Positions 7,822 through 8,279 of a stretch of DNA of 64,000 nt are shown here, in pieces. The translations under genes and the position numbers were made by a program. Source of the DNA: Escherichia coli (lineage in GTDB: Bacteria > Pseudomonadota > Gammaproteobacteria > Enterobacterales > Enterobacteriaceae); assembly GCF_024223415.1 (NCBI RefSeq), contig NZ_CP100500.1; one strand, 5' to 3'. Position 1 is the first letter of the stretch, and each line of letters starts with the position of its first letter. The notes beneath the pieces are model-generated. The model made no database searches and was not told the origin of the DNA. It saw only the letters and a program-made list of their open reading frames with translations.

Positions 7822-8254
7822 TTTTATTCCTACGGGTCTTATTCTGACAATATATCCTGTGTTCCAGACTGCCACATCACCACATCCTGTGCCATTATCT
7901 GACTCACATTACATACATCGCATCAGGATACAGTAGTAGCACTTTCTGTAATACAGCTTCCGGTTTCTTCCACCATCGCACCGGACTGGCGAGCATGAGG
8001 GACAAACCCGCGAACCATAAACGCGGTAAAAACCCGGTGTGCATCGTTTTTGATTATTCCCGCACACTCGCGCAGAAGGAGTTCCCCGTCGGGCTACGGT
8101 CATGGTTAATGCGGGAATACAGCGACGATACAGCGCATGATGTGTCAGGCTTGAATACCTTTATCCGTTAAAAGGGATATCAGTTAAGTTATCCCGTGTA
8201 GGGTATAAGCCATTATCAAAGCCACTCTGTAGGGAGTGGCTTTTGTAATGGCAA

Positions 8255-8279
8255 TAAAAAAGCCCCGCGAATGCGAGGC
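8255..8279 (-). terminator. Rho-independent terminator downstream of lysis cassette
   Basis: Minus-strand RNA GCCUCGCAUUCGCGGGGC (7-bp GC-rich stem, tetraloop) followed by UUUUUU. Confidence 0.5.

Follow-up and report, generated by a model that had tools for sequence, protein, structure and literature searches.

The two hairpins at the junction between the lysis and packaging regions of this prophage are best explained together, and with reasonable confidence, as RNA elements of the late transcript: hairpin 2 as a terminator, hairpin 1 as a stem belonging to read-through RNA, and their flanks as sites at which morons may be swapped. On this explanation neither hairpin has anything specific to do with the lipoprotein gene that follows them. 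The finding is in itself ordinary, namely a terminator of a familiar type together with a junction hairpin, both of which already carry the label of predicted terminator in GenBank phage records; terminators in lambdoid late operons and hairpins at the boundaries of morons are likewise familiar. The addition made here is modest, in that hairpin 1 is presented as a putative structured RNA of the late strand that marks a slot for gene insertion, which aids the reading of mosaic junctions and the annotation of prophages. The only parts with some novelty are this structured RNA at the moron slot and an unannotated conserved element, the core, located further downstream.

The window, i.e. the whole 64-kb stretch of DNA analysed, carries the phage genes around the hairpins exclusively on the minus strand, and their order is that of a standard lambdoid late operon, read right to left. 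The features are listed below in the direction of late transcription.

11161-11856, minus strand: antiterminator Q
11149-11177, minus strand: pR'-like promoter, preceding the tR'-like terminator
11074-11097, minus strand: tR'-like terminator just downstream of Q (z -4.3, U7 tail)
10797-10950, minus strand: two tRNA genes
10109-10381, minus strand: holin
8918-9451, minus strand: lysozyme
8454-8936, minus strand: Rz (i-spanin), end of the lysis cassette (Pfam Phage_lysis, E 6e-31)
8495-8701, minus strand: Rz1, a lipoprotein ORF embedded in Rz (from the ORF list)
8314-8466, minus strand: ORF50, a 50-aa ORF overlapping the end of Rz (phrog_11822, E 4e-38)
8255-8280, minus strand: hairpin 2 and T-run, with the features of a Rho-independent terminator
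8210-8251, minus strand: hairpin 1, a two-tier stem-loop (from fold and conservation)
7959-8137, minus strand: the core, a conserved and apparently non-coding element shared with lambda, 434, 21, Stx phages and DLP12 of K-12
7495-7821, minus strand: lipoprotein gene with a TonB_C domain (Pfam TonB_C, E 2.6e-13)

The genes for the small and large terminase subunits lie beyond the TonB_C gene, also on the minus strand. The putative terminator at 11074-11097 is taken here as tR', the first-line terminator of the late operon. ORF50 is the equivalent of gene 65 of Sf6 and gp67 of epsilon34, is annotated in Sf6, epsilon34, mEp460 and Ayreon as well as by PGAP, and is the last ORF before hairpin 2. 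The earlier note had located the hairpins between Rz and the lipoprotein gene, which is correct broadly but not directly, as ORF50 separates Rz from hairpin 2. On the other side, about 390 nt, including the 180-nt core, separate hairpin 1 from the start codon of the lipoprotein gene (7821).

Two hairpins of the late strand

Hairpin 2 is a predicted Rho-independent terminator of canonical form on the late strand. Its stem (AGCCUCGC/GCGGGGCU; 8261-8280) includes one U-G pair, has the loop AUUC and is followed by U6 (8255-8260) on the minus strand, where the U-tract UUUUUUAUU abuts the stem; the plus strand has no such tract. A GC-rich hairpin with a T-run had previously been assigned to 8255-8279. 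It is present, but ends one nucleotide further on, at 8280, and the T-run belongs to the minus strand, the plus strand showing an A-run at 8255-8260. On the minus strand hairpin 2 folds at -14.1 kcal/mol, while its plus-strand form is imperfect, having an A-C mismatch in place of the U-G pair and no T tail. In a scan for terminator patterns it was the top match (8 pairs, 6 of them GC, a loop of 4 and a T6 tail, minus strand). By energy it is unremarkable, ranking 1,667 among 42,638 sliding 43-nt folds, and comparison of the hairpin alone with shuffled sequences gave z -2.3 for the minus strand and -1.1 for the plus strand. It is located 33 nt past the stop codon of ORF50 in the same orientation, and the epsilon34 record labels an identical sequence 'Rho-independent terminator'.

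In IMG/VR loci and phage records, the T-run and the start of hairpin 1 together read TTTTT(T)ATTGCCAT(T/C)ACAAAAGCC. At least four different GC-rich stem-loops (2a, 2b, 2e and 2f), each of which folds alone, precede the same T5-7 run, and these variant stems sit behind different upstream genes. Stem 2a (AGCCTCGC/GCGGGGCT) is the version found in the window, 2b is AGGTCGC/GCGGCCT and 2f is GGCCACGC/GTGTGGCT. Between 2a and 2f, one pair has changed from U-G to A-U and another from G-C to G-U. A GC-rich stem and loop are thus combined with an adjacent U-tract, and the stems vary while the structure is kept, as in Rho-independent terminators. With the U-run conserved, the stems interchangeable and a stop codon 33 nt upstream, hairpin 2 looks as an intrinsic terminator does.

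As an ordinary intrinsic terminator, hairpin 2 would close the segment formed by Rz, Rz1 and the 50-aa ORF. Since it has every feature of such a terminator, polymerase unmodified by Q should stop before the lipoprotein gene, and this would apply to polymerases that leak through tR' in the prophage state as well as to those that start at stray or moron promoters. In lytic growth, Q-modified polymerase would be expected to pass hairpin 2, as in Q antitermination of the lambda type. The intra-operon terminators predicted in the late operons of lambdoid and P22-like phages (phage L, P22, epsilon34) are overridden by Q or gp23 antitermination; hairpin 2 has the same anatomy and the same position after the lysis genes, with no difference, and both termination at this site and its override by Q would be expected by analogy. 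According to the phage L genome paper, terminators within the late operon are common in P22-like phages and their role is unknown (PMC8022706). The roles suggested there are partial termination, which would cut the amount of downstream mRNA, or the stopping of spurious transcription that is not antiterminated (PMC8022706).

Hairpin 1 has a two-tier fold. The sequence AAAGCCACTC-TGTAGG-GAGTGGCTTT, which had been placed at 8218-8244, occupies 8218-8243, position 8244 being one extra T. It forms an upper stem of 10 bp (8234-8243 with 8218-8227) and a loop (8228-8233), and a 2x2 internal loop followed by a lower stem of 6 bp (8246-8251 with 8210-8215) extends the whole element to 8210-8251. The 96-nt region that includes both hairpins folds at -40.9 kcal/mol, compared with -18.6 +/- 3.0 for shuffled sequences (z -7.35, 0/200). 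Hairpin 1 alone gave z -7.7 on the minus strand and -7.1 on the plus strand, and ranks first of the 42,638 sliding folds, which cover both strands of the whole window. Its stem in the window is perfectly Watson-Crick, with -25.6 kcal/mol on the plus strand and -22.4 on the minus strand, and a U4 tail follows it on the plus strand. The terminator-pattern scan did not call hairpin 1 on either strand, because its T's are consumed by the stem. In the Ayreon record the stretch is annotated as 'terminator'.

Comparison with other phages indicates that, on the late strand, hairpin 1 is conserved as a structured RNA. The two-tier stem is kept in P22-like, HK97-like and lambda-like phages. The invariant sequence just downstream was the anchor for retrieving homologues, so that one sequence context was sampled, and in the 61 distinct versions obtained the stem has three alleles, all of which retain 16 column pairs. 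Allele A (AAAGCCA(C/U)UC...GAGUGGCUUU) is that of the window and also follows Sf6 gene 66, allele B (GAG(G/A)CCAUUC-AAU-GAGUGGUCUC) occurs in HK97, HK022 and epsilon34, and allele C (AAGCC(U/C)AUC-UACG-GGUGGGCUU) follows Sf6 gene 65. In the alignment of these homologues, 97.6% of cells are paired and 5 pairs have changes on both sides. Doubly changed cells number 86, compared with 26.6 in shuffles, none of the 500 shuffles reaching the observed value, and these compensatory changes represent few independent events (three alleles). Pairing falls to 31-49% in register-shifted controls. On the opposite strand, where the 141 G-U cells would become A-C mismatches, only 84% is paired, and a covariance model scores the window element at 66.8 bits on the minus strand versus 32.1 bits on the plus strand. 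The family is confined to one type of locus in lambdoid phages, and no copy was found in the K-12 regions examined.

The tail of hairpin 1 is UUUGAUAA in the window, CGACAAUG in allele B (HK97, HK022 and epsilon34) and UUGAUAAU in allele C. Allele B is followed by CGACAAUGG, which has no U-tract, and no conserved U-tract was found directly 3' of the stem among the homologues. Selection on pairing beyond the U's is not expected of a terminator, whereas the lower stem of hairpin 1, the 3' arm of which lies beyond the U's, is 93-100% paired, and pair 12-43 has changed from A-U to G-C in 18 sequences. A transcript ending at the U's would lack this covarying arm, and one allele has no U-run, so the selected form must exist in, and belong to, read-through RNA. 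In having no proper U-tract and a covarying lower stem beyond it, hairpin 1 differs from the late-operon terminators of P22-like phages and fits that class poorly. It is probably not just a second terminator.

Hairpin 1 would most likely be an intercistronic barrier against decay by 3' exonucleases, or a processing site, guarding the upstream lysis or moron mRNA; it may at best be a weak back-up terminator, in allele A. The role of decay barrier or stabiliser is proposed by analogy with two known systems. The sib/tI retroregulator of lambda is a hairpin that acts as a terminator and that is extended into a longer substrate for RNase III only when antiterminated transcription reads through it. 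Hairpin 1 resembles it in having an upper stem and a few U's with flanks that extend the helix only if transcription continues, as is seen from the two-tier fold and the covariation in both tiers, and in lying directly downstream of the genes it could regulate. It differs in having no sequence similarity to sib and a shorter helix (16 bp and a 2x2 loop), and the likeness is one of logic only. To decay barriers of the REP type it is similar in that it is very stable, directly follows stop codons in polycistronic RNA and has a conserved structure for which a U-tract is not required, but it is not a REP sequence and is present as a single copy in the 64 kb. The stem, of 16 bp with an internal loop, is also shorter than classic RNase III substrates.

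An insertion slot at a mosaic junction

By sequence comparison, the two hairpins are the edges of a recurrent insertion site for accessory genes, which is empty in this prophage. In other phages, at least 5 unrelated late-strand ORFs (e.g. Sf6 gene 66 and a 23-aa ORF) have a stem of the hairpin 1 type that starts 0-6 nt past the stop codon. About 124 loci carrying the end of ORF50 were surveyed. Terminator 2a is directly followed by hairpin 1, as in the window, in 28 of these, an insert of up to >1 kb lies between the two in a further 40, and in 33 terminator 2a is lacking and a hairpin-1-type stem comes right after ORF50. Two hairpin-1-type copies, on the same strand and 190-600 nt apart, are present in many P22-like and HK97-like genomes. 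Elsewhere the slot contains Sf6 gene 66, epsilon34 gp68 or one of several small ORFs, each followed by a hairpin-1-type stem, and the hairpin 1 family would close this slot for extra genes.

A junction motif, CATTA(A/C)AAA, is present on the minus strand in two copies that flank hairpin 2, at 8292-8300 and at 8241-8250, the latter being the start of hairpin 1. This motif is the point where different continuations diverge, and phage homology breakpoints fall there. Sf6 has a single CATTACAAA, which leads directly into a hairpin-1-type stem. BLAST searches against phages gave different relatives for different segments. The segment 7400-8137 (TonB_C module) has 95% identity to phage 21, ev017 and Perceval, and 7959-8500 matches mEp460 and Ayreon. 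The segment 8255-8500 (Rz, ORF50 and hairpin 2) matches the P22-like phages epsilon34, HK620, CUS-3 and Sf101, in which hairpin 1 is absent at that spot, and 8200-8249 (hairpin 1 alone) matches Sf6, mEpX1, HK544, IME10 and others. As these last two segments match different phages, a breakpoint lies between the hairpins. The suggestion in the earlier note that the hairpins bound a module is therefore borne out, in that they sit at a mosaic module boundary.

The hairpins travel with lysis-side modules (mEp460, Ayreon, epsilon34, HK620 and Sf6), and neither is present in phage 21, lambda, 434 or VT2-Sakai, or in the K-12 prophages DLP12 and Qin, so that published Term-seq maps of K-12 do not extend to them. 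As conserved flanks, CATTACAAA ... GATAATGG would serve as short homologies for the swapping of morons, and homology-driven mosaic exchange at short conserved stretches has been shown experimentally for lambdoid phages (PMC3945230). In the moron concept of Hendrix and Juhala, as cited in PMC2629481, a cassette of promoter, gene and terminator is inserted between the genes of an operon. The site between hairpin 2 and hairpin 1 is like such cassettes in that it holds different extra genes in different phages. It differs in that the slot is empty here, and the TonB_C gene is part of another module, about 390 nt away, with no recognisable promoter of its own.

The lipoprotein gene and competing explanations

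The lipoprotein encoded at 7495-7821 has a signal peptide ending in the lipobox AVGC and is annotated by PGAP as 'TonB family protein'. Its gene shares 95% DNA identity with the phage 21 module and is accessory, being found in phage 21, ev017 and Perceval and absent at this position in lambda, mEp460, Ayreon and VT2-Sakai. The hairpins had been linked to this gene as a 'moron', a link that is contradicted by the phage comparisons, as they travel with lysis-side modules, and phage 21 and ev017 carry the TonB_C module but neither hairpin. The hairpins say nothing specific on the lipoprotein gene, which is a separate mosaic module.

Independent transcription of the gene in the lysogen, which the hairpins had been thought to suggest, is unproven on the sequence evidence. 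The terminator features of hairpin 2 and the module boundary are in its favour, but the hairpins are not linked to the gene. A unit of this kind would require its own promoter past the hairpins, and a scan for the sigma-70 consensus on the minus strand of 8217-7822 gave no promoter match, although such a scan could miss weak or activator-dependent promoters. Manual and tool-based searches for promoters, covering 8160-8260 and 7822-8217 on both strands, gave no more than 3-4 of 6 matches per hexamer. Because the gene is read in the direction of the late operon, Q-dependent read-through would be enough to express it, and a terminator upstream is not to be equated with lysogenic expression of the lipoprotein downstream. 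About 90 nt past the stop codon is a hairpin (7383-7405; z -2.8, about -3) that has no adjacent U-tract, only a distant T-rich stretch. The TonB_C gene sits in the neighbourhood where lambda carries bor, which is expressed from the lambda prophage. A search of the literature on expression of the TonB-like prophage gene found nothing relevant.

It is rather unlikely that the hairpins are two tandem intrinsic terminators ending the lysis transcript, with the TonB_C lipoprotein gene as a moron transcribed independently from the prophage. Such an arrangement would agree with the canonical form of hairpin 2, with the GC stem of hairpin 1 that is followed in the window by UUUGAUAAU and carries the label 'terminator' in Ayreon, and with the accessory distribution of the gene, its place near the site of a prophage-expressed gene (bor) and the hairpin about 90 nt after its stop codon. 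However, the latter is without an adjacent U-tract, no sigma-70 consensus promoter was found on the minus strand of 8217-7822, and the hairpins and the gene belong to different modules, phage 21 having the gene without the hairpins. Hairpin 1 itself departs from a terminator in its U-tract, allele B having no U's, and in the covariation of the lower stem beyond. The preferred explanation, in which hairpin 2 terminates and hairpin 1 acts in read-through RNA, was also weighed against two others. Quite improbable is that hairpin 1 is a bidirectional terminator that also ends plus-strand (anti-late) transcripts starting downstream, possibly at an extended -10 promoter-like site within the lipoprotein gene (7667-7694) or through remnant transcription from the bor side (lambda, phage 21). 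On the plus strand a perfect 11-bp stem (-25.6 kcal/mol) is followed by UUUUGUAAU, and the symmetry of A-tract and U-tract is typical of this class. The site, TTAACC-16-TG-TATAAT, points towards hairpin 1 and is conserved in phage 21, but it is within a coding sequence, and chance alone would give about two perfect TGnTATAAT matches over both strands of 64 kb. Likewise, a plus-strand ORF called by PGAP (7995-8171) ends 46 nt before hairpin 1, but is open in 18 of 67 homologues only. The late strand is favoured by the 141 G-U cells, each of them an A-C mismatch when read on the plus strand, and by the covariance-model scores (66.8 versus 32.1 bits), and in Sf6, mEpX1, HK022 and HK97 both flanking genes are on that strand, leaving nothing convergent to terminate.

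A role at the level of DNA only, the inverted repeats being linkers or boundaries for recombination with no RNA function, is more improbable still. Phage homology breakpoints do fall exactly at and between the hairpins, the flanks CATTACAAA and GATAATGG are common to otherwise different inserts, two copies on the same strand often bracket inserted DNA, and recombination at short homologies drives lambdoid mosaicism (PMC3945230). A linker of this kind needs sequence identity, yet the stems differ in sequence, with compensatory and G-U changes that preserve the pairing on one strand only, and the variants of hairpin 2 keep the U-tract with unrelated stems.

A conserved core downstream of hairpin 1

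The core (7959-8137) is apparently a conserved, structured non-coding element, as judged from an alignment-based fold. Homologues are present in lambda (46867-47057), 434, 21, Stx1 and Stx2 phages, a Salmonella phage and the K-12 prophage DLP12. Among 67 distinct versions, no reading frame is open in all and the substitutions have no codon (3-) periodicity; the lambda variants have single-base indel differences. RNAalifold predicts nested stems with 98% pairing on the late strand versus 86% on the opposite strand. In these values, one arm of the main helix was largely set by the retrieval pattern, and a single alignment served both to predict the structure and to test it. Changes within the stems include many from C-G to U-G and from U-A to U-G, and few are compensatory.

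Several other assignments for this region were considered and set aside. The plus-strand ORF at 7995-8171, annotated by PGAP as hypothetical, has no Pfam or PHROG match, is open in 18 of the 67 versions and lacks codon periodicity, and is a probable over-annotation. A candidate third hairpin at 8171-8192 (GGGATA...TATCCC and UUUU) uses a pairing that is not part of the minimum-energy fold, has z -1.6 and lies in columns that were fixed by the retrieval pattern. The core does not appear to be the promoter of bor, as the PhoP-box-like sequence of lambda (TGTTTAGGGTTTGTTTA) is outside the conserved part, in the stretch that separates the core from bor, and the core persists in phages without bor. 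No Rfam family reached its gathering score in 7300-8700, nor in the homologous regions of lambda, VT2-Sakai and Sf6. STnc560 (22.7 bits versus a cut-off of 55, E 0.03) is a chance match; it is from the Salmonella ydeI/ydeE intergenic region, is not phage-related, and resembles the region only in its two terminator-like hairpins. The prophage sRNAs Pas, AgvB, AsxR, Esr41 and STnc100 are located between Q and the holin gene or elsewhere, and none matched.

A tentative possibility, which goes further than the explanation favoured above, is that the late transcripts of lambdoid phages contain two cis-acting RNA elements not described before, hairpin 1 and the core. Hairpin 1 might then be a sib-like or decay-barrier stem that decides the fate of lysis and moron mRNA only in Q-antiterminated read-through RNA, and the core a structured RNA at the lysis-to-packaging junction of lambda-, 21-, 434- and Stx-type phages, with some role in the expression of late genes. 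The core, which is unannotated and common to lambda and to DLP12 of K-12, is the more interesting lead and is directly testable in standard laboratory strains. The DLP12 copy is located at 579008-579198 of K-12, between borD and ybcV.

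Conserved element between the lysis and packaging genes

The lysis-to-packaging junction carries a conserved non-coding element that is common to lambda-, 21-, 434- and Stx-type phages and to DLP12, and it is overlapped on the opposite strand by a hypothetical protein annotated by PGAP.

Features at the junction (window coordinates)
7959-8137, minus strand: conserved non-coding element of ~180 nt; counterparts at 46867-47057 in lambda (NC_001416) and 579008-579198 in K-12 (NC_000913.3)
7995-8171, plus strand: WP_001205133.1, PGAP hypothetical protein of 58 aa, overlapping the element

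Nested stems are predicted in the element, with 98% pairing on the late (minus) strand versus 86% on the opposite strand. No frame is open across all homologues, codon periodicity was looked for and is absent, and an Rfam search of the element gave no match. Only 18 of the 67 homologues keep the WP_001205133.1 frame open, Pfam and PHROG searches with this protein returned no match, and the annotated ORF is probably not a real gene.

Paired stems in related phages

Many P22-like and HK97-like phages contain two stems of the hairpin 1 type (homologues of the two-tier stem-loop in the window). Both stems of a pair are on one strand, with a spacing of 190-600 nt, and what they enclose is a moron gene in some cases and a short conserved block, GGCGGACTGATGGAAAGACATC, in others.

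Stem pairs (coordinates within the retrieved phage loci)
Sf6 (L005): 500-553 and 1173-1210
HK022 (L134): 8254-8304 and 8067-8102
HK620 (L007): 308-358 and 565-611

The TonB_C lipoprotein gene and its surroundings

The lipoprotein gene located between the hairpins (hairpin 1 and the adjacent terminator-type stem with its T-run) and the terminase genes contains a promoter-like site and is followed by a further hairpin.

Features in and around the lipoprotein gene (window coordinates)
7495-7821, minus strand: TonB_C-domain lipoprotein gene
7667-7694, plus strand: promoter-like site, TTAACC-16 nt-TG-TATAAT, 10/12 matches with an extended -10
7383-7405: 9-bp hairpin, GGCGUUGU...ACAACGCC, z about -3 on both strands

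The lipoprotein matches PHROG 1267 (E 2e-40), which is labelled 'Rz-like spanin', and Pfam finds TonB_C only; the label looks like an annotation transferred from genomic position. A role as a decoy for TonB-dependent receptors that excludes phages or colicins is a speculative thought. The promoter-like site, the best in the region, is antisense within the gene, directed at the hairpins and kept in phage 21, and could be a chance match in coding sequence. The 9-bp hairpin lies ~90 nt 3′ of the gene with T-rich stretches close by on both strands. It could stop transcription weakly or in both directions, between the end of the lipoprotein gene and the small pre-cos ORFs.

Late control region, lysis cassette and other RNA families

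Immediately after the late antiterminator gene Q, and ahead of two tRNA genes, minus-strand positions 11074-11177 hold a pR′-like promoter with the sequence TTGCAA-17-TATATT, followed by a strong terminator (AAAACCCGC...GCGGGUUUUUUU, z -4.3); this is the classic pR′/tR′ arrangement of Q antitermination. Further along, a gap of ~650 nt (9452-10108) separates the holin gene (10109-10381) from the lysozyme gene (8918-9451). This segment is an opposite-strand insertion inside the lysis cassette, with a plus-strand ORF at 9575-9952 (phrog_1853) that PGAP annotates as a frameshifted partial gene.

Elsewhere in the window, Rfam matches at gathering score fall at 14421-14596, 20953-21004, 21239-21427 and 51178-51441. 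The families matched are sok antitoxin RNA, DicF, isrK, C4 antisense RNA, and tRNA-Tyr with RtT after it. This set fits a lambdoid prophage that adjoins the tyrT region.
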